The notes: generated by a model not told the origin, from the letters alone. A DNA stretch of 64,000 bases from an uncultured Candidatus Sumerlaeota bacterium (GCA_964473105.1 CAYYNQ010000048.1:97709-161708), one strand, 5' to 3'. Shown: positions 5,574-59,525, counted from the first letter of the stretch. Translations and numbers: made by a program.

Positions 5574-5596
5574 AACCCGGGTGGGTTTTTCGTTTT
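5574..5596 (+). terminator. Possible intrinsic terminator hairpin (AACCC-GGGT-GGGTT) followed by a T-run
   Basis: The sequence aacccgggtgggtttttcgtttt lies right after the stop of a dubious 90-aa ORF (5303-5575), ~360 nt downstream of the UbiA gene. The stem is short, so this is low confidence. Confidence 0.3.
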
Positions 5597-5699
5597 CTGT
5601 CCCGGCGTATTATTCCTTCATGTTATTCCGGCCACTAAATATCGTATCACCCGACTCGTTCCGATTTGACCCGGAAAAGCCCGAATCCAAAGGTTGACC

Positions 5700-10312: not shown

Positions 10313-10417
10313 TATGATATCATGCAGTGATGGTTAACGGCTAAAGTCGTATAAAAATGTTCCATACAGTGCTTTTTTGTTCCTGTTTTGAACAAGATTC
10401 CATATAAATGTCCAAAT

Positions 10418-11962: not shown

Positions 11963-12029
11963 AGTCTGGTCAATCCAGAACCGGAAACAATTGAGAGATC
12001 GAAATAAGGTTAACCAAGGAGCCCATGCC

Positions 12030-13472
12030 ATGACGACGGCATTAAAAATCCTGATACTTGACGACGAACCCAAGATGGGAAGAATCCTGTCACGGATCCT
12101 TAAACGTGAGGGACATGATGTCTCAGCCTCCAGTGATCCAAACGAGATACTCGGGAAGATCCATGACTCTCCGGTGGACCTGGCAATCACGGACCTTAAA
12201 ATGCCGGGAATGGACGGACTTGAATTCATGAGGCAGGCACGCAAAATACAGCCGAATCTGGACGTAATTATGATGACCGCCTTTGCAACGGCGGAAACCG
12301 CGGTAGAGACCATGAAAGAAGGAGCTTTCGATTATCTCATCAAGCCCTTCCCCAACGAAGAGATGATAATGGTCGTTTCTCGCGTTGCTGAACGCCGCAG
12401 GTTGCGTGATGAAAACAGGCGCCTCAAGGAAAGGCTATCGGACCGATTCAATCATGAACAGATCATATCGGTCAGTCATAACATGCGTGAGGTCATGAAA
12501 CGGGTGGGCAAGGTTTCCGTCAGCGAAGTATCTGTGTTATTGAGGGGTGAAAGTGGGACCGGCAAAGAGATCCTTGCAACCGCTATCCATGAAAACAGCT
12601 CGCGCTCGGAGAATGTTTTAATCCGAATCAACTGCGGCGCCCTCCCCGAATCGCTACTCGAGAGCGAGTTGTTTGGCCATATCAAGGGAGCCTTCACCGG
12701 CGCTGTCGAGACGCGTAAAGGCCTTTTCGAGGAGGCCCATGGGGGATCCATCTTCCTGGACGAAATCGGTGAAATCAGCCCTGCGTTGCAGGTCAAGCTA
12801 CTACGGGTGCTGCAGTCGGGCGAATTCCAGCGCGTGGGAGATACCCAAACCCTCCATGCCGATGTTCGAATTATCGCGGCCACCCACCGCGACCTGGAAA
12901 AGATGATCCAGCAAGGCGAGTTTCGCAGTGATCTCTATTATCGCCTGAACGTTGTCCCGATCATGATCCCTCCACTGCGGGATCGACCCGAGGATATTCC
13001 GGCACTGATTGACCATTTTCTTATGCGGATCCGCGAAAACAGCAACAAGACCATTCAACTGGCAAGAACGGCCTTTGACCGCTTGACTGCCTATGACTGG
13101 CCCGGAAATATCCGTGAACTCGAGAATGCAATCCAACATGCCCGGGTTATGTGCGAAGAGGATATAATCCAAGTCACGGATCTACCCGTTGTGATCCAGA
13201 TTACACTCCCTGACCCCCTTGGGAACCAAAAGCCAGGAGAGAATTCCCACCACATTGACAACCAGTTAACATTGGATGAAATCGAGAAAAAGGCATTGAT
13301 CGATGCACTCAATGCGGTGAATTATAATCATACACGTGCCGCACAAAGACTGGGTATCACCCGCCGAATGCTGGGTTCCCGACTAGACAAATACAATTTA
13401 CCCAGAAAAATAACGGATCGCGTGGTGGAGTCCATATCTATTCCCGATTCTCGCCTTAAAGATAAATCATGA
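12030..13472 (+). CDS. Sigma-54-dependent response regulator (NtrC family: REC + AAA+ + HTH)
   Basis: REC domain (ILILDDE...DLAITDLKMPGMDG) followed by AAA+ Walker A (GESGTGKE) and the GAFTGA motif (GAFTGAVETRKG). A C-terminal Fis-type HTH is present. The ATG at 12030 has an AAGGA RBS, and the gene overlaps the kinase 3' end. Confidence 0.85.
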   Translation: MTTALKILILDDEPKMGRILSRILKREGHDVSASSDPNEILGKIHDSPVDLAITDLKMPGMDGLEFMRQARKIQPNLDVIMMTAFATAETAVETMKEGAFDYLIKPFPNEEMIMVVSRVAERRRLRDENRRLKERLSDRFNHEQIISVSHNMREVMKRVGKVSVSEVSVLLRGESGTGKEILATAIHENSSRSENVLIRINCGALPESLLESELFGHIKGAFTGAVETRKGLFEEAHGGSIFLDEIGEISPALQVKLLRVLQSGEFQRVGDTQTLHADVRIIAATHRDLEKMIQQGEFRSDLYYRLNVVPIMIPPLRDRPEDIPALIDHFLMRIRENSNKTIQLARTAFDRLTAYDWPGNIRELENAIQHARVMCEEDIIQVTDLPVVIQITLPDPLGNQKPGENSHHIDNQLTLDEIEKKALIDALNAVNYNHTRAAQRLGITRRMLGSRLDKYNLPRKITDRVVESISIPDSRLKDKS

Positions 13473-24048: not shown

Positions 24049-24618
24049 TCAAGCATCCGGACCCGTCGTGCTCCCTTTCTTCGACTTGGATCCCGCCTTA
24101 ATGCTCTTGGCATCCAGCGGTTTCCCTTGCTTCACACGCTCCAAGGCCTCGGAAAGGGTCATGTTGCCGGGCAGAAGGCGCAATAATCTGCCCAAGGACT
24201 TGTTCATCTCAAGCAGAAGTGAATGCCAGTCCAGTTCCAGTTTTGACCGCGTGTTGTCATCCATAACCTGGATATGGGAAAGGCTGACCGACATGGAGAG
24301 CACATGCACAATTTCGGAGGCGTGTTCGAAAGCAGGCCCCATGGCCTCGGAAAACTGAAATTGCTTGCGGGAGAGTATCGTCATCGTCTGAAAAAAAGCT
24401 TTTTCTTCCGATGCCTCAATTTGTCGCTCTTCGATATCCCGCGCGAAAAACTGGAAATACTTCAACCACAAACTGATATATTCCTGGCAAACAGCTATTC
24501 GATTTTCCAGCGTCAGCAGGTTCTTGACATATTCCTTCTGTTCCTTCCTCAACTTAAACCGGACAACCTTGTTGATCGTACCCTTTGCTTCCCTATTTTT
24601 CCGTGCCATAATTACCAC
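24049..24618 (-). CDS. Hypothetical cytoplasmic protein, apparent paralogue of ORF 28265-28714
   Basis: 189 aa with no known domain. Its motif SMSVSLSHIQ...RSKLELDWHSLLLEMNKSLGRL aligns with SAMSMAHLKN...RRKILGTWHVCYLKLIRTLGAL of the 149-aa protein. Confidence 0.5.
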   Translation of the reverse strand: MVIMARKNREAKGTINKVVRFKLRKEQKEYVKNLLTLENRIAVCQEYISLWLKYFQFFARDIEERQIEASEEKAFFQTMTILSRKQFQFSEAMGPAFEHASEIVHVLSMSVSLSHIQVMDDNTRSKLELDWHSLLLEMNKSLGRLLRLLPGNMTLSEALERVKQGKPLDAKSIKAGSKSKKGSTTGPDA

Positions 24619-24712
24619 GTCCCGTAACAGGAATACCGGTATCCTTCAATCCGGGCGTTTCTGATCGAATCAGCCCGAAGCCCCTAGATCTGGTCAATCC
24701 GGTTGCATCGAT

Positions 24713-24829
24713 TCAGTCTTTTTTAAAGACATTGAGGGTAAAGAAAAAATATCCGAGAACATGCAGAATTGCAATGATCGTCAGGACTTCGACCAGATAG
24801 ACATAATTGTCACTTAGCCATTGAAACAT
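24713..24829 (-). CDS. Unannotated small ORF: 38-aa hydrophobic peptide MFQWLSDNYVYLVEVLTIIAILHVLGYFFFTLNVFKKD
   Basis: ATG preceded by GGCGGAG with a 7-nt spacer. It has a single predicted TM helix and lies between the lipoprotein gene and ORF 24049-24618. It falls below the 60-aa cutoff of the ORF track. Confidence 0.3.
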   Translation of the reverse strand: MFQWLSDNYVYLVEVLTIIAILHVLGYFFFTLNVFKKD

Positions 24830-24898
24830 GTCTATTCTCCGCCTTCATAACAAACGGCCTAAACCCTGTGGCCGTCCGGTTAATTCCTCGATCCCGAT

Positions 24899-27800
24899 TC
24901 AAAACCCACGAAATGACACGACTTGCTGAACACCCATTGGCTTGAACTGAATCTGGGGGTACACAATTCCATGTTGGATCTGCTGTTGCTCCTGTCGCGC
25001 CTCATGAATCTGCTGAAAAGCGACTTGGACAATCCTTCTAGCCTCGTTCGTATCATACAGGTCGAGAATGAGCAGCTTCTCAAAGTTAACAGCCGCCAAA
25101 CGGGACTTGGCTAGCATCGCGAGGGCCAACTGATGCAGACCCACTCGAGCTGGTGGAGGTGATATTTCCTTGACTTGAGTCCCTATCTCCGTGATACGGG
25201 TTCTGAGATCTGAAGGCGAGGTGGCTTCGATCAATGCCAACGCCTGGGCCTGGCCCCGCGGACCGATGACCATTCTTATCAGGGTCGCCGACCCGAGATT
25301 CAAAATCGGGGAAAATGCCTTCAGCTCATCGGTGAATTCCTTCATGTAGGTATTCAATCGAGCATCATATTCACGCTCATCCAAATGTGTTGCAATATCG
25401 ACAAGGATCTCCTGTGCATCCCTGGCGTTACTGTAACTCGAACGATAATCCTGGCTCTGATAGTCCATCTGCGAATACTTTACTTTCAATTCAACCTGAG
25501 TCACCTTCCCTGGAAGATAGGTCCTGGCCCCGCGCGTCTCAAGTTTATCCAGTTGCTCCTGCATGGCCAGCACCAAATCCGTCAGAACTTGCGGGGTCAT
25601 TTCGACCAAACCTGCTAGTTGGGCCTCCAGTAGGTTGACCTTGTCCTGAAAGTCCTCATAGTTCTCCGGATCAAATTCGTTTTTGATATTCTGAATTTGT
25701 TCCAGGACTACCGATAAATCATTGACCTGATAATAACCAGCCCCAACCTTCTGTGCTTCATTAAGTTTCGAATTAAGCATGTTCATTCGGTCGCGAAATG
25801 ATTTGCGTTTCGCTGAACGTGTGACTTCCTGAGCGGTATTGACCGCGGTGACAGCCAATGATCTGGATAGGCTGAAGTCACCCCCATCCAACGCCTGCCT
25901 AGCCTGACCGGCATCGCTAATCACTTCTGCCAGTTTTTTCCTTTCATATTCCCAGGCGTAAAATCGCTTGGCAGTCGCGATGGCATTCTCAGACTCGATA
26001 ACCTTTGCATATAGGGCATTATGCGCCTGCTGAACGGCCTGATCTCCAACGACAACAGCTTCACCGTAATGACCCGAATCGTAAAGGGCCTGAAGATTAC
26101 GCCTCAGTTCGCGTGCCTCAAGCATGAGAGCAATGGCATATTCGTCGGCTCCGGCCTGTTGACCCCTGTCCAACAGCCGCTGAGATTCTGCAAGATGACC
26201 CTCACTCCATTGGCGTAGTGAATTTGAACGGGCTTCCGAAGCGATTTGTTGTGACTGTAGAGCACTCTCTATCGCACTCTTGAGACCTCCGCCCATGAGG
26301 GCATCCTCGGCAATCGTCTGGGCCACCAAGGCTTGGGTATATGCATCAGTCTCGTATTCCTCAGCCCGGCTATCCCTAGCTGAGACCAAAGCGTCACGTG
26401 CAGTCTCGATCTCCTTGATCGCAACCCGTTCAAGCTCCTGAACCATGACTTCGAGCTGGGCCCGAGTATCGCCCGCCCGTGCCACTGCAGCACGATATTT
26501 CTGTTCGACCATCAAAACCTTGGTCTCCTCAAGGATGCCCCCCGTCTTATCCAGTTCATCCGAGGCATATTCACGTGCACCTTCTCGTTCATAACGGGAA
26601 AGTTCATTCGCAATTTCGAGGATGGAATTGTGGGCAACAACACGATAGGTCTGGCGAGTCACATCATCAGCACTCTTGACAACCGCTTGGGCAGTTTCAA
26701 TCGAAAGGTCAAAATCCTTGGACTCGCGCTTCAACTCCGCAAGGCCCAGTTGCAGCTGGGTACTTGCCAGTTGAGCCTGAAGTTCCCCCTTCATGGCAAG
26801 CTTTCCATCCTCCAAGGCGCGCTCCTCGTCCTGCCAGTCTCCGGGAATCTTCTGGGCAAATATTGTACCCATCCGCTTAAAGACCTGTTCCGCCGTGGCA
26901 AGACTTTCCGATGCCCGGGAAATATGCTGCGCAGCCAGAATATCATAATCCCCGGTAATCTTGATATTGAGTTCAAGCGCCCGTTTGCTGACTTCCTTGG
27001 ACTCCGTGTAATACTCTTCACCAAACAGACCCGATGCCTCCTCAAGAAGTGCTTCAAGCTGCTCAACACGGCCCGGCAGATATGTCCGGGCCTTTTCATT
27101 GTCAAGGACCGCAATGGCAGCCTGAACGGCACCCATCTCCGCCTTAGCGGCTTCGCGCTTTGTCTCAACAATCAAATCCTCCACCCGGGGTTGAAGCTTG
27201 GGCGCCAAGGTCAGGACCGTGTCATAATTGCGGTCATAGAACTGTGTCAGCATGTTCTCGAATTCCTTGCTGACCTCGCGGAAGGACTGCAGTGCGAATA
27301 TCTCGGATCCCAGATCGGTCGCTGTATCCAGCAGGTTCTCGATGATCACAATTTTCTTCTGGCTTTTGACCTCCTTGGTTTTCTGAATCCCCTCTTGCTT
27401 ATTCTGGCGGGCAAGGTTACGGGTATTGATCGCATTGCGGTAATCAAAATCGACCTCTATGAATCGCTTGATCTCATCGATGTGTGCCTGCATTTTCTGA
27501 ACAAACTCAGGAGCATGATCCTCGGCCGCCTCGTTTATCAGATCCTGCTTCATCTGATTTGCCTCGGCCAGCCCTTCGACCGACTCATTTTCCAGATTCT
27601 GCAGCAGGAACTGAATATCATCATAAACCTTTGACAAGGTCCTGATGGAGTCGTCGAATTTTTCCTTTTCGATATATTCCAAGCCCTGCGTGTTGTCGAT
27701 AACGATCTGGTCATACAGGGTCGGGTTTTCCTGTTTTCCCTGGTTCTTGTCCGCGATCTTCAGCCATTTGCTGGCCTGGTTCTTAAGGTGATTGGAATAC

Positions 27801-28135
27801 TGGATCTTCGTATTGTTCAACAGGGTCTTGCTTTGATCCGAAGCTTCCCTGGCCTTCAAGCGGGCCTCCTTGAACTGACCGGTGTTGATCAGGCTTTGGG
27901 CCTCGTTGATCGAGTTGTTGGTGCCCTCGAGTTGGTCGGTCGTGAACTCGACGGCCTGATTCACGACCGCTTCGTCCCTGCGCTTGGTAGCACCCTTGAG
28001 GTTGTGTTCTGCGAGCATTTTGTTACAGCCTGTGGTCGCCAGCAGGAAAAAACACAAAAGCCCCGCCGTCAGGATACTGAGCATCCGCCCTGGGCAGTCA
28101 CTCATATTGTTTCGGATATAAATCTTATCAGACAC
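24899..28135 (-). CDS. Giant (1078 aa) coiled-coil lipoprotein of unknown function
   Basis: The GTG start has a strong AAGGAG RBS. The signal peptide ends in a lipobox (LLATTGC). The rest is almost entirely E/K/Q/L/A-rich alpha-helical sequence with internal repeats such as ARTYLPGRVEQLEALLEEA and ARTYLPGKVTQVELKV. Confidence 0.7.
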   Translation of the reverse strand: MSDKIYIRNNMSDCPGRMLSILTAGLLCFFLLATTGCNKMLAEHNLKGATKRRDEAVVNQAVEFTTDQLEGTNNSINEAQSLINTGQFKEARLKAREASDQSKTLLNNTKIQYSNHLKNQASKWLKIADKNQGKQENPTLYDQIVIDNTQGLEYIEKEKFDDSIRTLSKVYDDIQFLLQNLENESVEGLAEANQMKQDLINEAAEDHAPEFVQKMQAHIDEIKRFIEVDFDYRNAINTRNLARQNKQEGIQKTKEVKSQKKIVIIENLLDTATDLGSEIFALQSFREVSKEFENMLTQFYDRNYDTVLTLAPKLQPRVEDLIVETKREAAKAEMGAVQAAIAVLDNEKARTYLPGRVEQLEALLEEASGLFGEEYYTESKEVSKRALELNIKITGDYDILAAQHISRASESLATAEQVFKRMGTIFAQKIPGDWQDEERALEDGKLAMKGELQAQLASTQLQLGLAELKRESKDFDLSIETAQAVVKSADDVTRQTYRVVAHNSILEIANELSRYEREGAREYASDELDKTGGILEETKVLMVEQKYRAAVARAGDTRAQLEVMVQELERVAIKEIETARDALVSARDSRAEEYETDAYTQALVAQTIAEDALMGGGLKSAIESALQSQQIASEARSNSLRQWSEGHLAESQRLLDRGQQAGADEYAIALMLEARELRRNLQALYDSGHYGEAVVVGDQAVQQAHNALYAKVIESENAIATAKRFYAWEYERKKLAEVISDAGQARQALDGGDFSLSRSLAVTAVNTAQEVTRSAKRKSFRDRMNMLNSKLNEAQKVGAGYYQVNDLSVVLEQIQNIKNEFDPENYEDFQDKVNLLEAQLAGLVEMTPQVLTDLVLAMQEQLDKLETRGARTYLPGKVTQVELKVKYSQMDYQSQDYRSSYSNARDAQEILVDIATHLDEREYDARLNTYMKEFTDELKAFSPILNLGSATLIRMVIGPRGQAQALALIEATSPSDLRTRITEIGTQVKEISPPPARVGLHQLALAMLAKSRLAAVNFEKLLILDLYDTNEARRIVQVAFQQIHEARQEQQQIQHGIVYPQIQFKPMGVQQVVSFRGF

Positions 28136-28264
28136 CTTGCAACTCCTTGAATTGACCCACGAGACTCAACGGCCCCATGCACCCGCTCAGCCTCTGGATT
28201 TTGTATTCCTTACGTTCTGGTCTTGGAGATCCCGGGGTTCAACCCCCGATCCCCGGGCTTCATA

Positions 28265-28714
28265 CTAGATAGCAATCTTCTTCCGCGCCTGTTTCTTGTT
28301 CTCATGCTGCTGAGCCACTATCTCCCGATGAAGATGCGGATAATACCCCAAACCCATGACCTCAAGTGCGCCGAGTGTCCGTATCAATTTCAGGTAACAG
28401 ACATGCCAAGTCCCCAATATTTTCCGCCGCTCTGTGGCCGGCAGGTTTTTGAGATGCGCCATGCTCATCGCCGATTTGAGCGTTTCCATCATCTTGTCCC
28501 CATCAAATTGAAGCCCTCCGGGTAGTTCTTCCGACACCTTCTTGTAGAGCCTTGAAAGTTCTGTCTTCAACCGCAGGTATTCCTTCTCCTGATCCGACTG
28601 GACTCCCGCGTCGCTAAAGGCCTTGAGAAAGACTAGCTTGATACGCATCCAGATCTCCAAAATTTTCTTGACGGCCTCTTCAAAGGACTCAACCTGTGAT
28701 GGTATCAGGGGCAT
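28265..28714 (-). CDS. Hypothetical cytoplasmic protein (149 aa), paralogue of ORF 24049-24618
   Basis: No known domain and a helical profile. It shares the ...S.MS..H......R.K....WH..L.L.....LG.L motif with the 189-aa protein. Confidence 0.5.
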   Translation of the reverse strand: MPLIPSQVESFEEAVKKILEIWMRIKLVFLKAFSDAGVQSDQEKEYLRLKTELSRLYKKVSEELPGGLQFDGDKMMETLKSAMSMAHLKNLPATERRKILGTWHVCYLKLIRTLGALEVMGLGYYPHLHREIVAQQHENKKQARKKIAI

Positions 28715-28738
28715 TGAAAGCAGAAACCTCCCTAGAAC

Positions 28739-29848
28739 TTACCTTCTTGACGACCCTCTTGACGACCTCCCTGAGGCCTGACCAAATGAAGCCGGGTTCA
28801 TCATCATGGCAACTCCATTCATGCCGGAACCCGCCAAATTGGAGCCCCTCTGGGCTCCTGCTGCATGAGCGGAGTTACGCCTGCCACGACCTGACGCCAT
28901 CTTCTGCTCCTCAATCTTGTCTCGCAGTGACATCGGGTCCCCGTAGGGGATCCAATGGTCGGAATGAGGCGGCCTAACTGACGGCGGCACCGGCGGCAGG
29001 GGGATAAACAGCGTGTAAAATTCACTGGTCAAGTCGTCCTTGTTCGTGCGGTATTCCTGGAGAAAACGATTAGACCAGTCATCCTTGACACGCTGATCCT
29101 TTTCCTGAAACTTGTCCCGGTATTTCGGAACCGCCTGTGCCTCATCAATCGGCATCTCGATAACAACTTTTCCCGGTCCATTGCCAAGATCATCAACCAT
29201 GCGCCAAGCACGGTTACGTGACACCGAATCATGACGCTCGGTACTCATGATATTGAAGCCGTAAAATTCCAATGGGTTCAGTTGGTTCGCAGCCAGCAAC
29301 GCACCCACCAACCGCTCCTTGACACGCTGGTTACTTTGGCCAATGTAATTGTCGTCATTGATATCCACCTTCGTATACTGGTCATCATTCGCTTCAACAT
29401 CTCCATTGGTCCCGTCATCAAAATAGGATTCCTTGTCTGTTGCGGGAACTTCCTTGATCTGGGCGTCATCGAGCAGATCACCGGTGATGGCATCGAAGAT
29501 TCGTGTCCCCGTAATGACCTTGATTTTCGGGATGACTTCCTCGGCTCCAACGGACATATCCATATCCTCGGTATAACCGGATTCCGATGTGGAAGCATCC
29601 ATGGACCCGTCTTCCACCGGTCCGGGAGGGATCGGTAAACCCGCTGTCTCGCGCGCACGGTTGACCGGGTTGAGGCCAGCGCCGCCCCCCATGGACGGGG
29701 GCGCCGTTTCATTCAAGGTATCCATACCGGACATTACAGCGTTCATTTCGGCCAAGCCCTGTGCCCTTGCTGTGGACGGCAGAACTCCGACCCAGAAAAC
29801 CGTCAGGATCAAGCCGAAAAGCGGCGCGTTTTTACTCTGGATCTTCAC
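28739..29848 (-). CDS. Secreted hypothetical protein (acidic core, basic R/S-rich C-terminal tail)
   Basis: GTG start. The signal peptide ends ...VGVLPSTARA|QG. A D/E-rich middle region is followed by a C-terminal GRGRRNS...SRGSSRR tail. Confidence 0.6.
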   Translation of the reverse strand: MKIQSKNAPLFGLILTVFWVGVLPSTARAQGLAEMNAVMSGMDTLNETAPPSMGGGAGLNPVNRARETAGLPIPPGPVEDGSMDASTSESGYTEDMDMSVGAEEVIPKIKVITGTRIFDAITGDLLDDAQIKEVPATDKESYFDDGTNGDVEANDDQYTKVDINDDNYIGQSNQRVKERLVGALLAANQLNPLEFYGFNIMSTERHDSVSRNRAWRMVDDLGNGPGKVVIEMPIDEAQAVPKYRDKFQEKDQRVKDDWSNRFLQEYRTNKDDLTSEFYTLFIPLPPVPPSVRPPHSDHWIPYGDPMSLRDKIEEQKMASGRGRRNSAHAAGAQRGSNLAGSGMNGVAMMMNPASFGQASGRSSRGSSRR

Positions 29849-29890
29849 GTCACATCACCCTGTTAAACACGTTACATCACCCTGCTAAAC
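29846..29890. repeat. Tandem 22-nt direct repeat x2 (ACGTCACATCACCCTGTTAAAC / ACGTTACATCACCCTGCTAAAC) abutting the GTG start of ORF 28739-29848
   Basis: Seen in the sequence with 20/22 identity. On the coding (minus) strand each copy reads GTTTAnCAGGGTGATGTnACGT, so each carries an SD-like AGGGTGA plus a GTG. Confidence 0.45.
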
Positions 29891-30377
29891 CTTTTAGTTC
29901 CAAGGACTTTGTATCTGAAATCATTTAGCTCGAAAATCAAGATGCTGTCAACTTCCAAATAACCTCAATCCATATAGGGCTTCCCGATACAATATAACGG
30001 ACCGTTCCTGTGTGACTCGACCTGTCCCTTCAGAAAAAATCGCCATGGTGTGTAAAATTGAAACATCGTGTCGTCATGGAAATAGGACTGTTAATATTGA
30101 CACGTATATTTTTGTGTTATATTGATATTAAAGTATTTATATTTTATTATAGATCTGTATTCAAGGATTACGAGTCAAGACCAAGGAGCTCAATCTCAAT
30201 TCATCAACCAATACCTGAAATAACTTGGCAGATCAGCGGGGATCAGGCTACACTGCCAGCTGCCGGTAGCTGCGAATGCAGCGGGTCTCGGCAACCCCGC
30301 AGAAGTTTCAGTGGTTCTGCATGAACCGGAACCCTTGAAGCAGAATGATCCCTGTGTTATCCGAGGTAAGGTTCTAG

Positions 30378-30872
30378 ATGCTAGACGATGCCGCCACTTT
30401 GCACAACCTTCTCAATTTCATGCAAGAGATGCAGTCGGATAAGACTGGCAAAAATGACTTGGCAAAACGGCGCCTGGCTCTATTGGAAGAGAGGCGCCGC
30501 GAGCTGTTCGAAAATATAACCTCAAGTAGCCCGGACAACGAATCAAGACGAAAACTTGAAGAGACCGAGCATCAACTCGAACAGACCCGAAAAACCCTGC
30601 TGGAATCTGAGGATGAGTTACGTGTAACGTTGACTGAGCTACGGCAACGGATCCTAAAAATGACGAATGATGAATTGGCCCAGCTTGAAACGGAGAATCG
30701 TGAAATCCGGCTTCGCAAAGAAGAGATCCAGCACGGGTTACTGCCGGAAATCCGTGAGAGGCTGACACGTCTTGAAGAGGAAGAGTCGGATTTGAATCAT
30801 CGGTCGGCATCTGTTGCCAAGCGAATTCGCAAATTAACCGCACTCGATCTGGAGAAAAGTGATGTTGCCTGA
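30378..30872 (+). CDS. Hypothetical cytoplasmic coiled-coil protein (164 aa)
   Basis: E/R/L-rich heptad-like sequence. It lies 60 nt upstream of the FAD oxidoreductase gene, so it may be co-transcribed. Confidence 0.5.
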   Translation: MLDDAATLHNLLNFMQEMQSDKTGKNDLAKRRLALLEERRRELFENITSSSPDNESRRKLEETEHQLEQTRKTLLESEDELRVTLTELRQRILKMTNDELAQLETENREIRLRKEEIQHGLLPEIRERLTRLEEEESDLNHRSASVAKRIRKLTALDLEKSDVA

Positions 30873-50880: not shown

Positions 50881-51849
50881 TCATCCAGAAAACTTCACGA
50901 CCGCCCTCAACCGGGCGGAACGACTGCGCGGATTACGCTCAACTTCAACGGGGCCGGGCCGAACGACCTTTCGTGTCAGCAAACGAGCCGGGGGAGGCAC
51001 ATCAGGGTCCGGAAAAGGGCCAGGACTACGCAAAGGGGCCGTGATCTTCTTCATAAATTGTTTCACTCTCCGATCCTCCCCCGAATGAAACGAGATGACA
51101 GCCAACCTTCCACCTGGCCGGAGCGCCTCAAACGCATCCGGCAATACCCTCTCCAATGTCTCGTATTCCCGATTCACTTCAATTCTGAGGCTCATAAAGA
51201 CCCGGGTGGCTGGATGCGTGTTCGGAGGCCAGTGTCTCCGCGGTATTGCACCTGCCACGATTTCGCCCAATTGCTTGCCCGTCCTGATACGGCCGTCTAA
51301 ACGCGCCTCGATAATTTTCCTTGCAATACGCCGGCTCCAGCGCTCATCCGCATTCACATAAAATATCCCGGCAAGATCGTTTTCCGACCACTCGTTGACC
51401 ATTTTCTCGGCCGAAGGACCCACCTGCTCGGGATTGAGTTTCATGTCCAGTGCGATGTCACTATTCCAACTCAGGCCACGAGAAGGATCTAGAATTTGTG
51501 GTGTCGATGGCCCCAGATCGAGTAGGCATCCGTCTAGAAGGCCGTCATTAAGGTCGGCTAGTACGGTGGGAATTGCGACGGATAGATCAATATGATCGGA
51601 GGGTATCAGCGTGTATGAGGAGAGAGGGAAGCCGGCAGCCTCCAGGCGCTGCCTGGCTGCCGTCAGCATTTTCGGGTCCTTCTCCCACCCGATCAAGTGA
51701 CCATCGACACCAATCTTGTCAAGAATCCCGACTGCATGCCCCGCATGACCAAGGGTCAGGTCGGCGAAGACTTCGCCGAAGGCAGGAGCCAGAATCTTTA
51801 AAACCTCCTGTAGCAGGACAGGTTCATGAACAACCTGCTGTCCATTCAT
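50881..51849 (-). CDS. rsmH: 16S rRNA (cytosine1402-N4)-methyltransferase
   Basis: HEPVLLQEVL...DLTLGHAGH... SAM-MTase motifs. The start overlaps the mraZ stop. Confidence 0.9.
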   Translation of the reverse strand: MNGQQVVHEPVLLQEVLKILAPAFGEVFADLTLGHAGHAVGILDKIGVDGHLIGWEKDPKMLTAARQRLEAAGFPLSSYTLIPSDHIDLSVAIPTVLADLNDGLLDGCLLDLGPSTPQILDPSRGLSWNSDIALDMKLNPEQVGPSAEKMVNEWSENDLAGIFYVNADERWSRRIARKIIEARLDGRIRTGKQLGEIVAGAIPRRHWPPNTHPATRVFMSLRIEVNREYETLERVLPDAFEALRPGGRLAVISFHSGEDRRVKQFMKKITAPLRSPGPFPDPDVPPPARLLTRKVVRPGPVEVERNPRSRSARLRAVVKFSG

Positions 51850-52589
51850 TTATTTTCCTGTTGCGGGGTTCCCATTTGACTGAAACCGGGTGCAACCGGC
51901 GGAGTCGCCGGGCCAAATCCCTCCTGGCCCGAAGTCGTCATCATGTTCTGGGATGGCTGCGTAATAGTAGGCTGCACAGGCACCATCGGCATCATCATCG
52001 GCATCATCATCGGCTGAGCCGAATAACCACCCCATCCGCCCGGAAACTGACCCTGCGATGACTGTCGGGGTGTCCTTGCACCCGAATCCACAACTGGTTG
52101 TCCATCCGGCTGTTGAATCGGTGCTGCCCCGGCCGTTGCTTCCGTCTGCTGTTGCTGCTGACTCAGGCTGAACGCATTATTCAAGGCCTGATAATAGACT
52201 TGCTCATTATAAATCCGCATGTGGTCCATGCATCCGGAGACAACAACCTGCGTCTGTAACTCAATGCCACACAAATCCATCATCATCTGGTTCAACTTGA
52301 AACGATTCTGATTATCGAGCGCCATCGTATCCGCAATTGAGGTATTCATATTACGAACCATCATCTCGTAGGCGTTATGCTCGTCCATCCGGCTCCAGCG
52401 CTCGATCTCTTCCAGAAAATAGGGATAGGGCATAACCTTGATGGACCGGTCCGGAGTGATCATGACACCGACTGAATCGACCTGCTCCGGACACAGTTCT
52501 CGTAGGATACTCTTGTATTTTGAAGGCAAACCGACACGCCCCTTGCCGTCTACCTGCATCCTGAAGCTACCCATAAAGACTTGAGCCAT
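51846..52589 (-). CDS. mraZ: Transcriptional regulator MraZ with ~100-aa Q/P/M-rich low-complexity C-terminal extension
   Basis: The N-terminal ~150 aa hold the two MraZ DXXXR-type repeats (FRMQVDGKGRVGLPSKY...; NRFKLNQMMMDLCGI...). Residues ~150-247 are low-complexity (SQQQQQTEATAGAAPIQQP...MMMPMMMPMVPVQP...). Confidence 0.8.
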   Translation of the reverse strand: MAQVFMGSFRMQVDGKGRVGLPSKYKSILRELCPEQVDSVGVMITPDRSIKVMPYPYFLEEIERWSRMDEHNAYEMMVRNMNTSIADTMALDNQNRFKLNQMMMDLCGIELQTQVVVSGCMDHMRIYNEQVYYQALNNAFSLSQQQQQTEATAGAAPIQQPDGQPVVDSGARTPRQSSQGQFPGGWGGYSAQPMMMPMMMPMVPVQPTITQPSQNMMTTSGQEGFGPATPPVAPGFSQMGTPQQENK

Positions 52590-52809
52590 GACCTAGACCT
52601 TCCAAAAGAAGCGAATTATGAGACAAGTCTCCCCGTACCCTAGCCCTTAATCACCACCGAAAACCCCTTTTACACCACATATAGGGAAAATCAGGTTTAA
52701 GTAAACACCTTACTCCACAATTATGTCAAGAACTAAATTTACTCATTACAGTGCGTTAACCCCCGATATGAGTTGAGTAGAGCAGAAAACTGTAAAATAT
52801 TATAAGATT

Positions 52810-52827
52810 TATAATATCAATATTATA
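52810..52827. repeat. AT-rich inverted repeats (TATAATAT-CA-ATATTATA and overlapping ATATTATA-N6-TATAATAT) upstream of mraZ
   Basis: Seen in the sequence ~220-240 nt upstream of the mraZ start, in the dcw promoter region. Confidence 0.3.
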
Positions 52828-53024
52828 TAAATTTCTGTGGGAGGAGATTATTTAGGAAATCAACCTTTCAAGATCTCCGGGGATTCGCTCAATTAATCCG
52901 CTACATGTATAAAATCCGCCCGGGGGCGAGGGAGGGGTGATGAAGCCGGGCATGACAGATTCATCTCCATCATCAACCACAGGACGGCGAGGATATACGC
53001 AAACCGTGCGAAGGGGCTTATTTA

Positions 53025-56000
53025 TTATTGACCGATATCAACCGCTGAATCCAATGGATCGAACAGACCGTTGCCGTTGATATCGATCAAGATCGGCACA
53101 GTCCAGGCGAGTGGATAAATTGGCCGGGATCGGTGTAGAGGATGCAGCATGTCATGAATCGGCTTATTCCCGTAGGTCGAAACGCCAAGCAACGTATCCT
53201 TGAAGTCGACGATCTTGAAAGCCCTGAGGCTTTGCACATCATATTGAGCCATAGATTTTTCCGGATTCGGATAGCGTTGGCTGAACTCGATCCCGGGGTA
53301 AGACATGAGACCCGCTTGGAGTTTACCCTCCTTCTCGTAGACAAAGTGGTTCAAGACCACCCAGTTCGGCGCGGTAATCCTCAGGCGAGTGGGCAAGCTC
53401 AAATCGAGGGGGACATGCCCACCCACATTGATCTCGCCGACACTGAAATCGATAAATGGCCCGTTCGTGATCTGGATCTTCATCCCCTTGATTGCAGTAA
53501 TCAACTCAGCGGGTGTAATCCGGCTCAGATCGTCCTTGCCAACGTAAACGAGCATACGCGGATATCCGGGTTCAGAACCAAATACGGTCTGACCCGTAGG
53601 CACGATCCCCGGAATATATGACCTGCCATCAATCCAGTTGTAAAACCAGAATCCCTGAATTTCCTTGAGTTCATTGACTCCTCTGCTCCGCATCAGCGCA
53701 ACGGCATCAATGGTGGGATCTACCCCATCCGCCGTGGTATAACCAACACGGTAGGGATTCCCGTCACCACGTGAAAAGTAGCCCTTTCCAGTGTGGGTAT
53801 AGGGCAGATCAGACTGAATGATTGCGCCGGGATACTGGCCACGTAATGCTGCAATAAACTCCTCCGAGGATTCTGTGTTGATCCAGTGATTGCGTGCTTT
53901 CAAAGGATCCTTTGCATGAGGACCGATCGGATAAAGAAAAAACTGCCCCCATTCCACGAATTTCGGGTGGGCCGTCCGAAAACCCATTATACTGCGAACC
54001 TGGCCCTCGAGCCCGAGTCCCCTGATGACAGGAGACAGGTCGGTCAGCGTCTCAAAATCCCCAGTGATTACCCAGTCAACCCCTTCAGCTGCCGCCATCA
54101 AAACAATATCCTCTGCGCCAACCATATTCCCAGGTGTTGCCACGGTTCTAACCCCAGCTTCAACAGAGGTCCAGCCCGGTGTCGGGTTGCTCTGCGCAAG
54201 GGGGACAGTAATTCTTTTCTTTTCACGGCTTTCAATGTGGATATCTAGGACAGTTCGGTCATATTCAATCCCATGGTAGACCTCCAAGGTCCAGTCACCC
54301 GGAATCAGGGGAATTGATCTTCCCCCGACGGGAATATAGGCCATGTCAAAATAACCGGCAGCACTTCGGGGCGGGCCGAAATTAAGTGGCGGGGTCGGAT
54401 ATATCGATTTTATCCTCACCCGGGCTGCGAGAGGTGCACTTGTCTCTTCGTCAACAACCTTAACTTCAAGGGAAGCTTCCTCCTCCACCTCGATCCTGAT
54501 TTTGGCATTTCTGTAGTGGAGCAAATCGCGTGAATCCATCCTGATTCCGCGGAAGGCCTTTTTGCTTTCGATCACCGAGCGGTGTCGGATCACGTAAACG
54601 TCACGGGGTAAAAGCATCTGAAAAAAGCCTTCCGAATCAGCCCGAGCATACATTCTGGTACTCAAGGGCATTCCGGGCCTGGTGAGGTAATTCGCCTCGA
54701 TGATACCGTTCGGAACCGGTCTCCCATCCTCCTCAAAAACCAATTCCCCCTTAAGGGTTCCGTAGTCAATACCTCGGTCCCTGAGGATGTTTGCATAGGC
54801 ATCCCCATAATAGCCCTGAGTGACCCACATATCGCGGCTCAGGATTCTGGAACCTTGAGTATCGATCAAACCAAGATCTTCTATGAAGACTCGGGCTTCC
54901 TGGGCCTCAGACCTACGGGGTAACCGCGTGACGACATGTGAAACCCCCGTGCGTTTCGTCCTTGGATCCCGAACCAGAACATGGGAAATTTCTGTCATGG
55001 TCGTGCCGGGATCATTCGTGAGGACATGAAGGATATTCGCGCCATCTGCAGCGCCGGGATCCTGCATCACAACATGGGAAGTACGTGTCGAGGAGGTTCC
55101 GATGTCGTGCCTGAAAACATTTGTTCCCGACAACGCCTCAGTCGTGCCGTCATCATTCACTAGCCAATGAGATATGTGCGTTTCGGTCGTTGCGGTATCG
55201 TCCAATAAAACACGGGTCTGGGACGGAAAGCCCCGTAACCGCCCAGTCACCTTACCAGCGAGCGGCGCAACGGCAATTGTCATCTTCCCCCAATTGCAGA
55301 AAAGGTGTTCAAGGTCGTGATTTTTCGTGGTCCGGCTAGTGATGATATCATCCCCGCCCACGTAGAGCCTGCCGTCACCCCAAAACGCCACATCACAGAC
55401 TGGCGGAATCTCCAAGCCATCTGGTAAATCCAGGAATCTGGTTTCAATCCTGACGCGCTCGCTGTTCTCGCGGATCCAGTATGTCGTTTCAATCCGGATA
55501 AATCCATGATCGAAGGGCGATCCGCCAAAACGAAGGCCCACGGACTTTTCATCGGTAACGATATCGATTTCATCATATTCGATTACGATATCATCGGAAC
55601 TTGTTCCGATACCCTGGGTGTAGTAACCGAGCATATCGAGCGGATAACCATCAAGGCTGACATCAATCAATGCACCGGGAATCCGGTCGCCCGCCCGCAA
55701 CAGGTCCATTTCACCAGACAGCGGGGTGGATGTTGTCGATGGCCTGTTCTCAATCGATGCAAAGGTAAGACGGATCTGCCCGTTCGAAAGCCTCCAGTCA
55801 CCAGCTTGTCCCATTGCATATGGGCCTGCATCCGGGGCAAAAATCCAAGGCAGCTGCTCAGCAACGGCCTTCCCGACCTCAACCCGTGGCAGGTCGGGCT
55901 GGTTTTTTCTGGAATCCCGCACCGCCGGTGGTTCTGAGATACCTGAACTCCCCGATGGAACGGTCGCCATACAGGGACTGACAGGTATCATCCAAGCCAC

Positions 56001-56045
56001 AAACAGAAGGATGGCCTGCAGCACAGGGCTGCATTCTGATACCAT
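53025..56045 (-). CDS. Large secreted protein (~1000 aa) with internal SHV(L/V)xxDPGT-type repeats, unknown function
   Basis: The ATG at 56045 (GAGG RBS) gives a signal peptide MVSECSPVLQAILLFVAWMIPVSPCMA. About four degenerate ~20-aa repeats occur near aa 300-390 (ISHWLVNDDGTT / SHVVMQDPGAADG / ILHVLTNDPGTT / ISHVLVRDPRT / VSHVVTRLP). The large C-terminal region is beta-rich. The track ORF extends to TTG 56108. Confidence 0.65.
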   Translation of the reverse strand: MVSECSPVLQAILLFVAWMIPVSPCMATVPSGSSGISEPPAVRDSRKNQPDLPRVEVGKAVAEQLPWIFAPDAGPYAMGQAGDWRLSNGQIRLTFASIENRPSTTSTPLSGEMDLLRAGDRIPGALIDVSLDGYPLDMLGYYTQGIGTSSDDIVIEYDEIDIVTDEKSVGLRFGGSPFDHGFIRIETTYWIRENSERVRIETRFLDLPDGLEIPPVCDVAFWGDGRLYVGGDDIITSRTTKNHDLEHLFCNWGKMTIAVAPLAGKVTGRLRGFPSQTRVLLDDTATTETHISHWLVNDDGTTEALSGTNVFRHDIGTSSTRTSHVVMQDPGAADGANILHVLTNDPGTTMTEISHVLVRDPRTKRTGVSHVVTRLPRRSEAQEARVFIEDLGLIDTQGSRILSRDMWVTQGYYGDAYANILRDRGIDYGTLKGELVFEEDGRPVPNGIIEANYLTRPGMPLSTRMYARADSEGFFQMLLPRDVYVIRHRSVIESKKAFRGIRMDSRDLLHYRNAKIRIEVEEEASLEVKVVDEETSAPLAARVRIKSIYPTPPLNFGPPRSAAGYFDMAYIPVGGRSIPLIPGDWTLEVYHGIEYDRTVLDIHIESREKKRITVPLAQSNPTPGWTSVEAGVRTVATPGNMVGAEDIVLMAAAEGVDWVITGDFETLTDLSPVIRGLGLEGQVRSIMGFRTAHPKFVEWGQFFLYPIGPHAKDPLKARNHWINTESSEEFIAALRGQYPGAIIQSDLPYTHTGKGYFSRGDGNPYRVGYTTADGVDPTIDAVALMRSRGVNELKEIQGFWFYNWIDGRSYIPGIVPTGQTVFGSEPGYPRMLVYVGKDDLSRITPAELITAIKGMKIQITNGPFIDFSVGEINVGGHVPLDLSLPTRLRITAPNWVVLNHFVYEKEGKLQAGLMSYPGIEFSQRYPNPEKSMAQYDVQSLRAFKIVDFKDTLLGVSTYGNKPIHDMLHPLHRSRPIYPLAWTVPILIDINGNGLFDPLDSAVDIGQ

Positions 56046-57410
56046 CAGACCTCGAAATACAGAAACGGTGGAACCAACAACCTTGCTGGGGAAATCAAAA
56101 GGAATCAAAATCTACGCACCTCCAAACACCCGGAATCCATGGGCAGTCTGCCATTCTCCCCGAATCTTGAGCAAATTCCAGACCCAATCTACGATTCCCT
56201 TAATGTATTCCGGTTGGATGGGAACCATTTTTTATACAAGATCCTGCTCATATAGCTGAAATAATGTGGCTTATATCCGTTTTCAGGCTTGTATGGGCAA
56301 CCTCAACCTGAACGCGGCCCGTTAGAATGCAAAATACCTATGGCTTAATATCAACCGGATTGCACGACAAAATAACACGGGTATTACAAGCAAAAAAGTC
56401 GTCGACACGACTCATCGGAGAAACCGAATTACACGCTCTTTGACTCGATGGTCAAAATCAGAACGGGATGAATTAACAGGATGGTTGATCCGGAAAATTT
56501 CCGGAGTTCCAAGATATAACTTCGCTTCACCAAACAGCCTGTGGCAAAGGCAACCATGGGGCCTGCTTTTCGGTGTTGTTTTCCGCCAGTTACGAATCAG
56601 GCCGGAACCACCACCTGAGTCGACTCCCTCATCATAATCTTGGAACCACGCTCCAGACTGACAGCCTGAATCCAGGCATCGTGCAGTATTACAAGGATCC
56701 CTTCACACGATTCGAGGGCACTGAGATCGCCGCTGGCCCCCGCCTGTGCCAAGGCCCCAATGAGATAGTTGTATATCCCACCGAACCGGACTGCAAGACG
56801 ATGCTGAGCAACTGAGTCGTAGTTCAACGAACCGGAAAGCTCAATCAAGGATACTGACGGCCTTGTCGATTGATAAAAGCGCCTCTTCCTGTCGCTCATT
56901 CGCCAGCAATTTCATTACGTCGTGAATATGTCCAATCGCCCCCTCGCAAAGATAAGCGGTCACTTCTTGCTGCGTCGCTGTCATAATCTCGGTCAGCATC
57001 TGGGAATTTAGCAATTGAGAAGACATGACCCCATCCCCCTTGTTGATCTTGCACTGATTTTTTGGATTTGCCCCGCCCGATGGGGCAGGCATTCAAACCC
57101 AAGGAACCCAGTGCAAGAAATGGATATGCCGAAATCTGGAGGCTTGTGGGTTTCGGGCCAATGGAGTATCATCAAATTGTTTATTTAGAATGACCTGCAA
57201 AGAAATACCAAGGATATTTGAAAGGCCCGGACTGGGTTGTTGAATCTGATATATTGCCCGATTCCTGACGGTCTGAACCGTGCGTGCCCAGAGGAATACC
57301 GGAAATCCGTCATGCGCGATCATTTACTGGAACCCTGAATTGAAATGTAAATCCTATTTGATCGTCTGTTATAGTGTCGTGCCTAAACAATAAACGAAAC
57401 AGCCTTGGAC

Positions 57411-59315
57411 ATGCTTGCAGAACTCTATTTCAGAAATTCCGGCGTTGGAACTCTTGGTCATTCCAATGACAAGGAACAATGGATTCGATTTAACAACCCC
57501 TTGGAAATCTATTCCACGAACCGGCCTGATGAAGTCCCTCAGTTACTGGACAAGATCCGCGGCACAACGCTCGATGGATACTGGGCCGCTGGATTTATCG
57601 GTTATGAAGCCGCATCCGGACTTGACCCCGCTTTCAGGGCTCATCAAGGCATGGATGATATGCCGATTTTGTGGTTTGCAATTTTCGATCAACCGAAACC
57701 GGTCATTGAACCAAGGTCGACCCAAGGTGGCGACCCAGGTGTCGGCCGCCCTGAATTCGACACTTGGAAAGCATCGGTTACACGCGAAGAATACCACAAA
57801 CATGTTGGTCGGATTCGTGAATACATCGGCAAGGGAGACACCTATCAGGTTAACTACTGTTATCCCCTGAGCGCCGGGTTCAAGGGTGATCCACTCTCAG
57901 GTTTCATAGACCTCTACCGCGTGCAACCTACAGACTATGCGGCCTATCTGGATACAGGTCGACAATACATCCTTTCACTGTCACCGGAACTATTTTTTCA
58001 CCAAAATAACCATGATGTGATAACGCGTCCCATGAAGGGCACGGCACCGCGTGGCCGGTGGCTGGAGGAAGACGAGGAAAACATTCGCCGCCTGAAACTC
58101 AACCCCAAGGATCGTGCTGAGAACCTGATGATTGTCGACCTACTTCGCAATGACCTAGGCCGTATCGCCCTGACGGGCTCTGTCGAAGTAACATCCCTTT
58201 ATGAGATCGAAAAGTACAGGACGATTCTCCAAATGACCTCCAGCATTCAGGCAAGGACCGACTGCCACCCCGTAGACACATTGAAAGCCATGTTCCCAAG
58301 CGGCTCCGTGACCGGGGCGCCCAAGATTCGGACTATGGAGATTATCCTAGAACAGGAATCCGAACCACGCGGGGTTTATACCGGGGCTATCGGATGGTTC
58401 GGCCCGAATTCCCAGGCTCGATTCAATGTTGCGATCCGTACAATCACAATACAATACTCGGAAAGCTGCAGCAGCCCGAAGCAGGCCCTCTTTGGTGTCG
58501 GCAGTGGAATCACCTGGTATTCGAACCCAGCAGAGGAATTTGATGAAACATGTGCAAAGGCACGGATACTTTCCCGGCAACCGAAGGATATCAGCCTGCT
58601 GGAAACTATCCTTTGGGAGCCGAGACGGGGATACTTCCTGCTGGACCTGCACCTCGACAGGCTTTCCAATAGCGCCGCACTGCTTGATTTCAAGTTCAAT
58701 TACGGGGAAATTATCAGGCGGCTCCATGAAGCCAAGGAAAAATTTTCATCCCATGATATCAGGGTTCGCCTTATCTTGGATCGTGATGGCGGGCTCAAAC
58801 TAGAATGTTCGCCACTGACAGGAACGGTCGGATCTGCCTGCCCGGACGACGAAAGCCATCGGACCCTCCGTGTCGGCCTTGCAAAAACCCCTGTCGACAG
58901 GTGGAATCCGTTTCTATATCACAAGACAACAAACCGTGCAGACTACGACATGGCCTTGGACGAATGCAGGGGCCTTGACGATGCCATACTCTGGAACGAA
59001 AGAGGTGAAGTCACGGAGACCAGTCGTGCAAACCTGGTCGTCGACACAGACAACGGCTTGGTTACACCTGCAAGGGACTGCGGACTTTTAGCCGGGACAT
59101 TTCGTCATCACCTGCTAAAGGAGGGGACTATAGGCGAAGGGGTGATAGACATTAAAACGCTGATCTCGGCCCGCAGGTTCTGGCTTGTCAATTCAGTACG
59201 ACGGTGGGTGAGGGCTGAACTGATTGACCGGGCCGATACCTGGAAGGATCGGCATCAATCCGGCTCGTCGAAACCTAGCCAGGGAGCGAACGGCTGCCGT
59301 GTCCATGCTGTCTGA
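57411..59315 (+). CDS. pabB: Bifunctional aminodeoxychorismate synthase component I / aminodeoxychorismate lyase (PabB-PabC fusion)
   Basis: The N-terminal ~370 aa are a chorismate-binding domain (GDTYQVNYCYP, PELFF, MKGTAPRG, NLMIVDLLRNDLG, FPSGSVTGAPK, GVYTGAIGWF). The C-terminal ~260 aa are class IV aminotransferase/PabC-like (FLYHKTTNR, ILWNERGEVTETSRANL). Confidence 0.8.
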   Translation: MLAELYFRNSGVGTLGHSNDKEQWIRFNNPLEIYSTNRPDEVPQLLDKIRGTTLDGYWAAGFIGYEAASGLDPAFRAHQGMDDMPILWFAIFDQPKPVIEPRSTQGGDPGVGRPEFDTWKASVTREEYHKHVGRIREYIGKGDTYQVNYCYPLSAGFKGDPLSGFIDLYRVQPTDYAAYLDTGRQYILSLSPELFFHQNNHDVITRPMKGTAPRGRWLEEDEENIRRLKLNPKDRAENLMIVDLLRNDLGRIALTGSVEVTSLYEIEKYRTILQMTSSIQARTDCHPVDTLKAMFPSGSVTGAPKIRTMEIILEQESEPRGVYTGAIGWFGPNSQARFNVAIRTITIQYSESCSSPKQALFGVGSGITWYSNPAEEFDETCAKARILSRQPKDISLLETILWEPRRGYFLLDLHLDRLSNSAALLDFKFNYGEIIRRLHEAKEKFSSHDIRVRLILDRDGGLKLECSPLTGTVGSACPDDESHRTLRVGLAKTPVDRWNPFLYHKTTNRADYDMALDECRGLDDAILWNERGEVTETSRANLVVDTDNGLVTPARDCGLLAGTFRHHLLKEGTIGEGVIDIKTLISARRFWLVNSVRRWVRAELIDRADTWKDRHQSGSSKPSQGANGCRVHAV

Positions 59316-59525
59316 GATATCCCTCCCTGCACAACGATCCTGGAATTACAGGAGACCCTGTCTGGCATACATGAAGTCGCAACCACAAACCATTAACCTT
59401 TAGATCTCTGGAAATTTGTCCGCCGACATATCAACACGGGCGCCATCGACACAAATCACCTGCCCGCCCAGGCCTCTCAGAAATGGATAATGATCATCCG
59501 GCCTTATTGGGCGATCTCGCCGTTG

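Follow-up and report, generated by a model that had tools for sequence, protein, structure and literature searches.

The type members of the CehA/McbA metallohydrolase family (NF038032) are two carbaryl hydrolases, CehA of Rhizobium sp. AC100 and McbA of Pseudomonas sp. C5pp / P. putida XWY-1; CehA of strain AC100 has a signal peptide, and carbaryl hydrolysis by McbA is reported to depend crucially on three histidines of its PHP domain (reviewed in PMC8292978). A PHP domain can also outlive its metal ligands, as in the alpha subunit of E. coli DNA polymerase III, where the ligands were lost and a structural role was kept (PMC3666897). FliS (PF02561, TIGR00208), the flagellin export chaperone, is typically encoded with its flagellin client nearby, and flagellar genes occur in some subgroups of Sumerlaeota only (PMC8092238). 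Here we analyzed a 64,000-nucleotide (nt) stretch of DNA from an uncultured Candidatus Sumerlaeota bacterium (GCA_964473105.1 CAYYNQ010000048.1:97709-161708), hereafter the window, whose positions are counted from its first letter, and in particular a large minus-strand gene (53025-56045), encoding an exported multidomain protein of 1006 amino acids (aa), P0001, together with the 1.3 kb of gene-poor DNA upstream of it. The best joint explanation, to which we assign a probability of about 0.72, is that the two are unrelated: the gene would encode a cell-envelope protein whose ancestral metallohydrolase site has been erased, and the gene-poor DNA would be a decaying flagellin locus.

A PHP domain without metal ligands

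No Pfam match was found for P0001, and NCBIfam gave one weak and partial match, to CehA_McbA_metalo (NF038032), over profile positions 182-253 only (E 0.0018); its 17.7 bits do not reach the curated cut-off of 80, although the PHP fold and the beta domain are present. Word-index homology searches came back nearly empty, with three relatives of P0001. An exhaustive phmmer search recovered 1196 cluster representatives at E < 1e-3, 76 of these below 1e-30, mostly proteins of 800-1000 aa that aligned over query positions ~400-1000 and over the N-terminal domain.

We aligned 159 family proteins to the family profile. In the 151 scorable ones, a census among the 150 best-scoring of the 1196 representatives, we scored nine columns for the ligands with which a PHP domain holds its three metals (HxH, D/H, H, E, H, H, DxH). 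The outcome was bimodal, with 51 of the 151 proteins keeping all nine (HHDHEHHDH; P0102 and P0159 are examples) and 79 keeping none or one, while P0071, P0098 and P0119 look intermediate. P0001 keeps none, its ligand columns reading G631, R633, G639, F664, R690, Q701, L747, T817 and Q819, and where distant relatives carry the motifs D-x-H-x-H, S-x-D-S, T-D-H, G-D-E, W-G-H, N-H-P and D-x-H, it has E-A-G-V-R, T-P-G-N, G-D-F, G-F-R, W-G-Q, D-L-P and T-G-Q. The replacements are themselves conserved among the 79 ligand-less proteins (G631 in 64, R690 in 63 and R819 in 40, with position 664 usually aromatic), while the family alignment holds no invariant His at any position. Residues kept in common with canonical relatives are D663, D780, E825-x-G-Y-P-R830 and TNGPF.

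Canonical relatives match all 315 positions of NF038032 with 93-171 bits (171 bits for P0102), and ligand-less ones score from 74 down to 17. Intermediates such as P0039 (74 bits) and P0071 (73 bits) span the whole profile, and therefore the homology is real, even though the curated family criteria fail. P0001 shares with CehA and McbA the PHP fold, a distorted barrel, followed by a beta domain, as well as the E-x-G-Y-P-R and TNGPF motifs, and differs from them in its N-terminal supersandwich, repeat linker and two sandwiches and in the complete lack of ligands; no link of P0001 to xenobiotic catabolism was found.

The original prediction, made from this DNA alone, held the product to be a protein of unknown function unless it could be assigned to a family such as CehA/McbA. 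A relative was indeed found, and the weak NF038032 match, the PHP fold and the name given by NCBI to a distant relative, P0003 (CehA/McbA metallohydrolase), could be read as marks of an ordinary active enzyme of this kind that has simply diverged. With a score so far below the cut-off, and not one ligand in place where 51 relatives hold all nine, the census contradicts this reading, which we regard as virtually untenable. Judged by its profile scores and ligand columns, P0001 reads instead as a degenerate relative of the CehA/McbA-type PHP hydrolases that has no metal site, not as a characterized enzyme.

Pfam has no model of the metal-site-less clade, and the clade passes none in NCBIfam; annotation pipelines call P0001 'hypothetical' and its distant relatives 'CehA/McbA metallohydrolase'. 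Members that have lost eight or nine ligands (the 79 of 151) should be left out of the hydrolase count when Sumerlaeota metabolism is reconstructed.

Architecture and export of P0001

The open reading frame (ORF) at 53025..56108 on the minus strand comprises 1027 aa when counted from its first TTG (56108) and 1006 aa from ATG 56045. The latter is the most plausible start, and an identical 1006-aa protein is recorded in NCBI and ENA assemblies. An in-frame TAG at 56112-56114 (minus strand) parts a 38-codon upstream ORF (56112-56228) from the large ORF. The codon at that site is TGG in two related loci, L033 and L035, where JGI annotates a 1068-aa protein (P0006), so that this difference between strains accounts for an inconsistent start annotation of the large gene; the substitution pattern of the upstream extension looks non-coding.

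The AlphaFold 2 model of P0001 (mean predicted local distance difference test score, pLDDT, 83.5; predicted template modelling score 0.83) is disordered only at aa 285-390 (pLDDT <50), and shows the following order of modules, all on the minus strand: a signal peptide (aa 1-27, MVSECSPVLQAILLFVAWMIPVSPCMA, 55965..56045), a galactose-mutarotase-like beta-supersandwich (aa ~50-281, 55203..55898), a repeat linker (aa 277-405, 54831..55217), two Ig/transthyretin-like (CarboxypepD_reg-like) beta-sandwiches (aa ~400-617, 54195..54848), the CehA/McbA-homologous PHP-fold domain (aa ~618-900, 53346..54194) and a C-terminal beta domain (53028..53345), at whose end alignment and model place a conserved DxNGNGxxD loop with an invariant D988. 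In canonical relatives the NF038032 profile extends from the PHP domain to ~5-25 residues short of the C-terminus, and its end aligns with positions ~993-998 of the 1006 in P0001.

The exported protein of ~1000 aa that had been predicted is thus borne out, its N-terminus forming a hydrophobic helix in the model. Many homologues of P0001 have an unmistakable Sec or lipoprotein signal peptide at the N-terminus, and therefore export is indicated as a family-wide trait; the signal peptide of P0001 may be of the type I or of the lipoprotein kind.

PDB sequence searches with P0001 gave no matches, and Foldseek against the PDB matched mostly Ig-like domains and sandwiches; the CarboxypepD_reg-like/transthyretin-like model PF13620 had no match in P0001 that reached its gathering score. 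Relatives of the supersandwich by fold are accessory domains (GH38 C-terminal, GH36 N-terminal, GH174, aldose 1-epimerase and YidC P1), to which P0001 is 5-11% identical, with no Pfam match and no epimerase or glycosidase catalytic context. The PHP part can be set beside PDB 3e38, a two-domain PHP-like phosphoesterase of Bacteroides, and 2anu, the PHP-family protein TM0559 of Thermotoga, both at 9-12% identity to P0001. By their depositors' titles these are predicted metal-dependent phosphoesterases, whereas the ligand positions of P0001 hold Gly, Arg, Phe, Gln, Leu and Thr. The C-terminal region, described earlier as beta-rich and devoid of any nameable domain, is beta-rich indeed, but sandwiches, a PHP fold and a C-terminal beta domain can be recognized in it.

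The linker contains about nine degenerate 15-16-aa repeats, (I/V)SHV(L/V)xxDPGTxxxx, and is predicted to be disordered. A block of SHV(L/V)xxDPGT repeats had been noticed beforehand, and a BLOSUM62 self-comparison of aa 266-410 recovered it as a peak at offset 15 (z = 7.8, 500 shuffles), with another at offset 31 (z = 5.7). Tandem Repeats Finder detected no DNA-level tandem repeat in the block, and therefore the repeats are old as well as degenerate. Only about two units are present in P0002, a 65%-identical orthologue, and the whole block is found in the 91%-identical P0006. The block is thus a short linker motif that has expanded in this lineage, between the first domain and the remainder of P0001.

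Selection and distribution

Compared with its 91%-identical counterpart in L033 (synonymous divergence, dS, ~0.25), the large gene has an overall ratio of non-synonymous to synonymous substitution rates (dN/dS) of 0.185. The folded domains are the most constrained, with 0.05 in the N-terminal supersandwich, 0.09 in the C-terminal beta domain, 0.15 in the PHP domain and 0.18 in the Ig/transthyretin-like sandwiches, as opposed to 0.55 in the signal peptide and 0.66 in the repeat block, which evolves almost freely. The large gene is therefore functional, and its PHP domain is constrained by purifying selection despite the missing canonical site.

A degenerate-pattern scan covering one genome per species yielded 30 loci with relatives of P0001, of which 28 are titled as metagenome-assembled genomes (MAGs) of Sumerlaeota, Sumerlaeia, Sumerlaeaceae or BRC1 and the other two as an unclassified bacterium and a Solibacteraceae MAG. 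The ligand-less members belong mostly to Candidatus Sumerlaeota. Being large, conserved and under purifying selection, the clade offers a clean natural case of active-site erasure in a PHP fold.

The genes next to the family members are mraZ in the window, a tetratricopeptide repeat (TPR) protein gene in L003-L005, and ubiE/ubiX-like housekeeping genes or tandem paralogues elsewhere. We had considered reading a function from conserved gene neighbourhood and dropped this approach, the recurrent neighbours being housekeeping genes, the TPR protein and tandem paralogues. In eight loci, all of more distant Sumerlaeota (L010, L011, L013, L015, L016, L023, L027 and L029), a shorter paralogue of ~260-400 aa stands in tandem with a ~900-aa member.

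Possible functions of P0001

We propose that P0001 is an exported modular protein of the cell envelope, belonging to a clade centered on Candidatus Sumerlaeota, whose PHP and C-terminal beta part would descend from a CehA/McbA-type trinuclear-metal hydrolase in which all nine ligands were replaced, several by clade-conserved Arg, Gly or aromatic residues. We infer that such a protein would have lost its metallohydrolase function and would most likely serve as a non-catalytic binding or scaffolding protein for a glycan or an anionic polymer. Carbohydrate-binding-like elements would then be supplied by the supersandwich and the two sandwiches, and a flexible tether by the repeat linker. The PHP domain of E. 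coli DNA polymerase III alpha offers a precedent, in that its metal-coordinating residues were lost and its role is structural and non-catalytic; it differs in being a cytoplasmic replicase domain that is related at the superfamily level only and that has lost several ligands, not nine.

Alternatively, P0001 may still be an enzyme, with a remodelled PHP pocket in which Arg, Asp and Glu stand in for the metals and support metal-independent catalysis, for example on a phosphorylated, sulfated or uronic polysaccharide, the beta modules serving as substrate-binding accessories as they do in many glycoside hydrolases and lyases. The conservation of R690, G631 and R819 across the clade would suit an active pocket, as would the constraint on the PHP domain, the persistence of D663, D780, E825-x-G-Y-P-R830 and TNGPF from canonical relatives and the N-terminal fold, which is typical for carbohydrate-active enzymes. 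Yet the family alignment lacks an invariant His, the literature search turned up no PHP enzyme working without metals, McbA needs its PHP-domain histidines for activity (PMC8292978), and the sole precedent for ligand loss that we found, in polymerase III alpha, is non-catalytic (PMC3666897). On balance we consider a surviving enzyme possible but unlikely.

More doubtful is a specific version in which the ligand-less clade represents a neo-functionalized PHP fold whose conserved arginines (R633 and R690, and R819 in most members) replace the three metal ions. It is similarly speculative that such a metal-independent site would act on the surface of Sumerlaeota cells, binding or even cleaving polymers that carry phosphate, sulfate or carboxylate groups. 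An arginine-for-metal replacement, if true, would make a new mechanistic class in the PHP superfamily, and the clade is worth studying either for this or as a pseudoenzyme.

A frameshifted fliS upstream of the large gene

Between the large gene and pabBC, a pabB-pabC fusion gene (57405-59315, Pfam) transcribed divergently from it, lie 1.3 kb with short ORFs only, as had been described. Two of these, at 56841-57092 and 56597-56899 on the minus strand, had been described as overlapping by ~58 nt and as a possible frameshifted small gene. Their positions proved exact, with an overlap of 59 nt, and the gene proved to be fliS: Pfam FliS (PF02561) matches the first ORF with profile positions 7-55 (22.7 bits) and the second with positions 56-114 (29.4 bits), and NCBIfam (TIGR00208) agrees for both halves. 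Removing one base restores a 142-aa FliS, which matches PF02561 from end to end (positions 7-114 of 115, 64.7 bits, E 1e-17) and is 65% identical to FliS of L001, a syntenic locus. The two overlapping ORFs are the halves of a fliS pseudogene that extends over 56597..57026 on the minus strand, with a start ATG at 57026 and a ribosome-binding site, AAGGGGGA. It is set apart from the usual setting of fliS by its broken frame and by the lack of an adjacent flagellin gene.

DNA alignments place the lesion, a 1-nt insertion, at 56846/56847, where the window reads ATCCTTGATTGAG and L001 reads ACCCTC-ATTGAG; a TGA stop at 56841-56843 results. The extra base is absent in L001, L035 and L036 (relatives without the insertion being about 84-90% identical to the window in DNA), and present in L034, a contig from another sample that aligns to the window without gaps at 99.0% identity, and in L002, a scaffold from ENA. 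Since it is common to L034, of a different sample, and L002, it is an inherited mutation, not an assembly error. The corrected fliS has a dN/dS of 0.13 against L001, much like its neighbours mraZ (0.08) and pabBC (0.16), and therefore the inactivation is recent.

That same constraint, the 65% identity to L001 FliS and the intact ribosome-binding site and start codon would also be expected if FliS were made normally, the frameshift being an assembly or sequencing error or being bypassed by programmed +1 frameshifting. We judge this very unlikely. An error is contradicted by the shared base in L034 and L002 and by an insertion site that is no homopolymer (ATCCTTGATTGAG). The motif for +1 frameshifting in prfB is CUU UGA; the context here, CUU GAU UGA, allows no prfB-like +1 re-pairing as we read the sequence, and two relatives, P0160 and P0162, encode the predicted junction KAVSILIELSG in a single frame. 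With no suitable slippery context and the relatives in frame, programmed frameshifting was rejected; the partner gene fliC, moreover, is missing from the locus.

L036 is a 524-bp contig that matches fliS of the window up to 56712 and is fully divergent thereafter (L036 398-524 as set against window 56572-56711). The divergence alters the C-terminus of FliS (P0160), and a chimeric contig or a strain rearrangement is possible.

Probable decay of a flagellin locus

In L001 the gene order is dsbD-(ahpC)-pabBC ... Big-mraZ-rsmH, where "Big" denotes the homologue of the large gene, and between pabBC and Big stand fliC (475 aa), fliS (171 aa), a 150-aa ORF (h150) and a RadC-like gene (467 aa). A radC-like gene is also located directly upstream of Big in L003. 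A tblastn search for fliC, h150 and radC found no trace of them in the window; local alignment likewise found no relics of fliC or h150 there, and only a weak 3' trace of radC. This possible relic lies at ~56414-56440 on the minus strand, where the motif TTTCTCCGATGAGTCG can be aligned to the final codons of radC in L001. L035 and the window are collinear over the interval from pabBC to Big; L035 too lacks fliC, h150 and radC, yet it is in frame at the fliS site, and therefore the deletions preceded the frameshift.

We infer that the 1.3-kb stretch is a decaying flagellin locus, in which the order and meaning of the gene losses would be as follows. The ancestral order would have been pabBC <-> fliC-fliS-h150-radC-Big; fliC, h150 and radC would have been deleted first in this lineage, and the orphaned chaperone gene fliS would then have gained its 1-nt insertion. 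What remains would be the fliS pseudogene, a near-neutral spacer and, close to the promoters of pabBC and of the large gene, one short conserved block each. The fliS relic documents a stepwise loss of the flagellin locus in one Sumerlaeota lineage and fits the patchy distribution of flagellar genes in the phylum (PMC8092238). A Pfam FliS match in such MAGs is no proof of motility.

Several points weigh against the joint reading of an erased envelope protein beside a decaying flagellin locus. On the side of the protein, the conserved replacement residues and the PHP-domain dN/dS of 0.15 are just as compatible with a new catalytic site that needs no metal; that R633 and R690 sit in the pocket that once bound metal would follow from the alignment only; and the gene neighbourhood gives no functional clue, as no neighbour is conserved with the window locus. 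On the side of the flagellin locus, no other flagellar gene, fliC included, is found within the 64-kb window, and this search covers the 64 kb only, so that further flagellar genes or a second flagellin may lie elsewhere. In L035 a run of Ns falls within the 5' part of fliS, and its apparent intactness covers the surroundings of the frameshift site only. The local score of the tentative radC relic is only z = 3.1.

In L003 the radC-like gene (5311-6672) consists of three overlapping ORFs in different frames (5311-5985, 5969-6481 and 6184-6672), and is perhaps disrupted as well. A helical ORF of ~150-170 aa with faint apolipoprotein-like Pfam matches is found after fliS in L001 (7734-8186) and immediately upstream of Big in five distant loci (L011, 7286-7801, with equivalents in L013-L016). 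The helical ORFs of L001 and of the distant loci do not cluster in BLASTP, and can be related to one another only tentatively.

Conserved blocks in the remaining spacer

The small ORFs other than the fliS halves carry stops or frameshifts in relatives and have mismatches spread evenly over codon positions; those at 57093-57323, 56429-56557, 56327-56443 and 56440-56637 are broken in relatives and were rejected as genes. The ORF at 56112-56228 was also rejected as a leader peptide, with substitutions relative to L001 that are all non-synonymous and mismatches relative to L033 and L035 that avoid third positions. Spacer DNA is 77-81% identical to L033, as compared to 90-96% for coding DNA, a roughly synonymous and thus near-neutral rate.

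Two short blocks are conserved beyond this background. The first is a non-coding block of 49 nt (56148..56196, minus strand), ~100-150 nt ahead of the large gene's start codon, which is 88% identical to L001 9961-10007 within intergenic DNA that is otherwise unalignable; its core is invariant in L033 and L035, and it is unique in the window. Its four substitutions relative to L001 are all non-synonymous in the covering ORF, and therefore the block is conserved at the nucleotide level. It is probably a promoter, operator or 5' leader element of the large gene. A sigma-54 promoter within it was considered and rejected: GG-N10-GC and TTGCT are present, but with 4 mismatches to TGGCACG-N4-TTGCW, and the window shows no enrichment of sigma-54-like matches (72 found, 90 expected). 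The second block, ~130 nt next to pabBC (57255..57387, with no strand assigned), aligns locally with L001 5277-5410 (z = 11.9 against shuffles), which is the pabBC-proximal part of the L001 pabBC-fliC spacer, and presumably holds the promoter and leader of pabBC.

Scans for sigma-70 promoters and terminators gave counts at or below chance in this region. A consensus scan picked out a terminator-like hairpin, GAGTCGTGTCGACGACTT, followed by a T-run (56396..56413, minus strand), the stem of which is identical in L033; the possible radC relic stands before it. Another terminator-like hairpin, ~95 nt past the stop of the large gene (52916..52929, minus strand), comes from the consensus scan only and is weak because such sites in the region occur in the number expected by chance.

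The two blocks and the conserved hairpin are what could be cited for a large regulatory or non-coding-RNA locus, the other possibility raised in the original prediction for these 1.3 kb. An Rfam scan of 52400-57700, however, gave 0 matches at E <= 1, and RNA folding energies did not differ from those of shuffled sequences (z-scores +0.69 and -1.09). The conserved blocks are short and adjoin the starts of the genes on either side, where promoters or leaders would be, the remainder diverges at about the synonymous rate, and one third of the region is a recognizable pseudogene, so that we find a non-coding-RNA locus scarcely credible and prefer a decaying flagellin locus.

Neighbouring genes and other observations in the window

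The large gene and the spacer are flanked by housekeeping genes (Pfam, NCBIfam): mraZ, rsmH and the dcw cluster at one end, pabBC and dsbD at the other. In L001 a 223-aa AhpC/Redoxin gene stands in the interval from dsbD to pabBC. In the window this interval is only ~210 nt long (59316-59525), and at 59361-59480 tblastn gave a weak match to the 40 C-terminal residues of AhpC (35% identity, E 0.03); the missing gene may be a second local loss.

Farther away, a histidine kinase adjoins an NtrC-type sigma-54-dependent response regulator (Sigma54_activat, 238 bits) at 10388-13472, with the NtrC-type activator encoded at 11931-13472, and therefore the organism probably uses RpoN-dependent promoters. 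Four consecutive ORFs at 24049-30872, of 189, 1078 (24899-28135), 369 and 164 aa, have no Pfam match at E <= 0.001. MraZ (51846-52589) is unusually long at 247 aa, the NCBIfam MraZ models covering its first ~135-149 residues only, and MraZ of L001 (243 aa) carries the same C-terminal extension.

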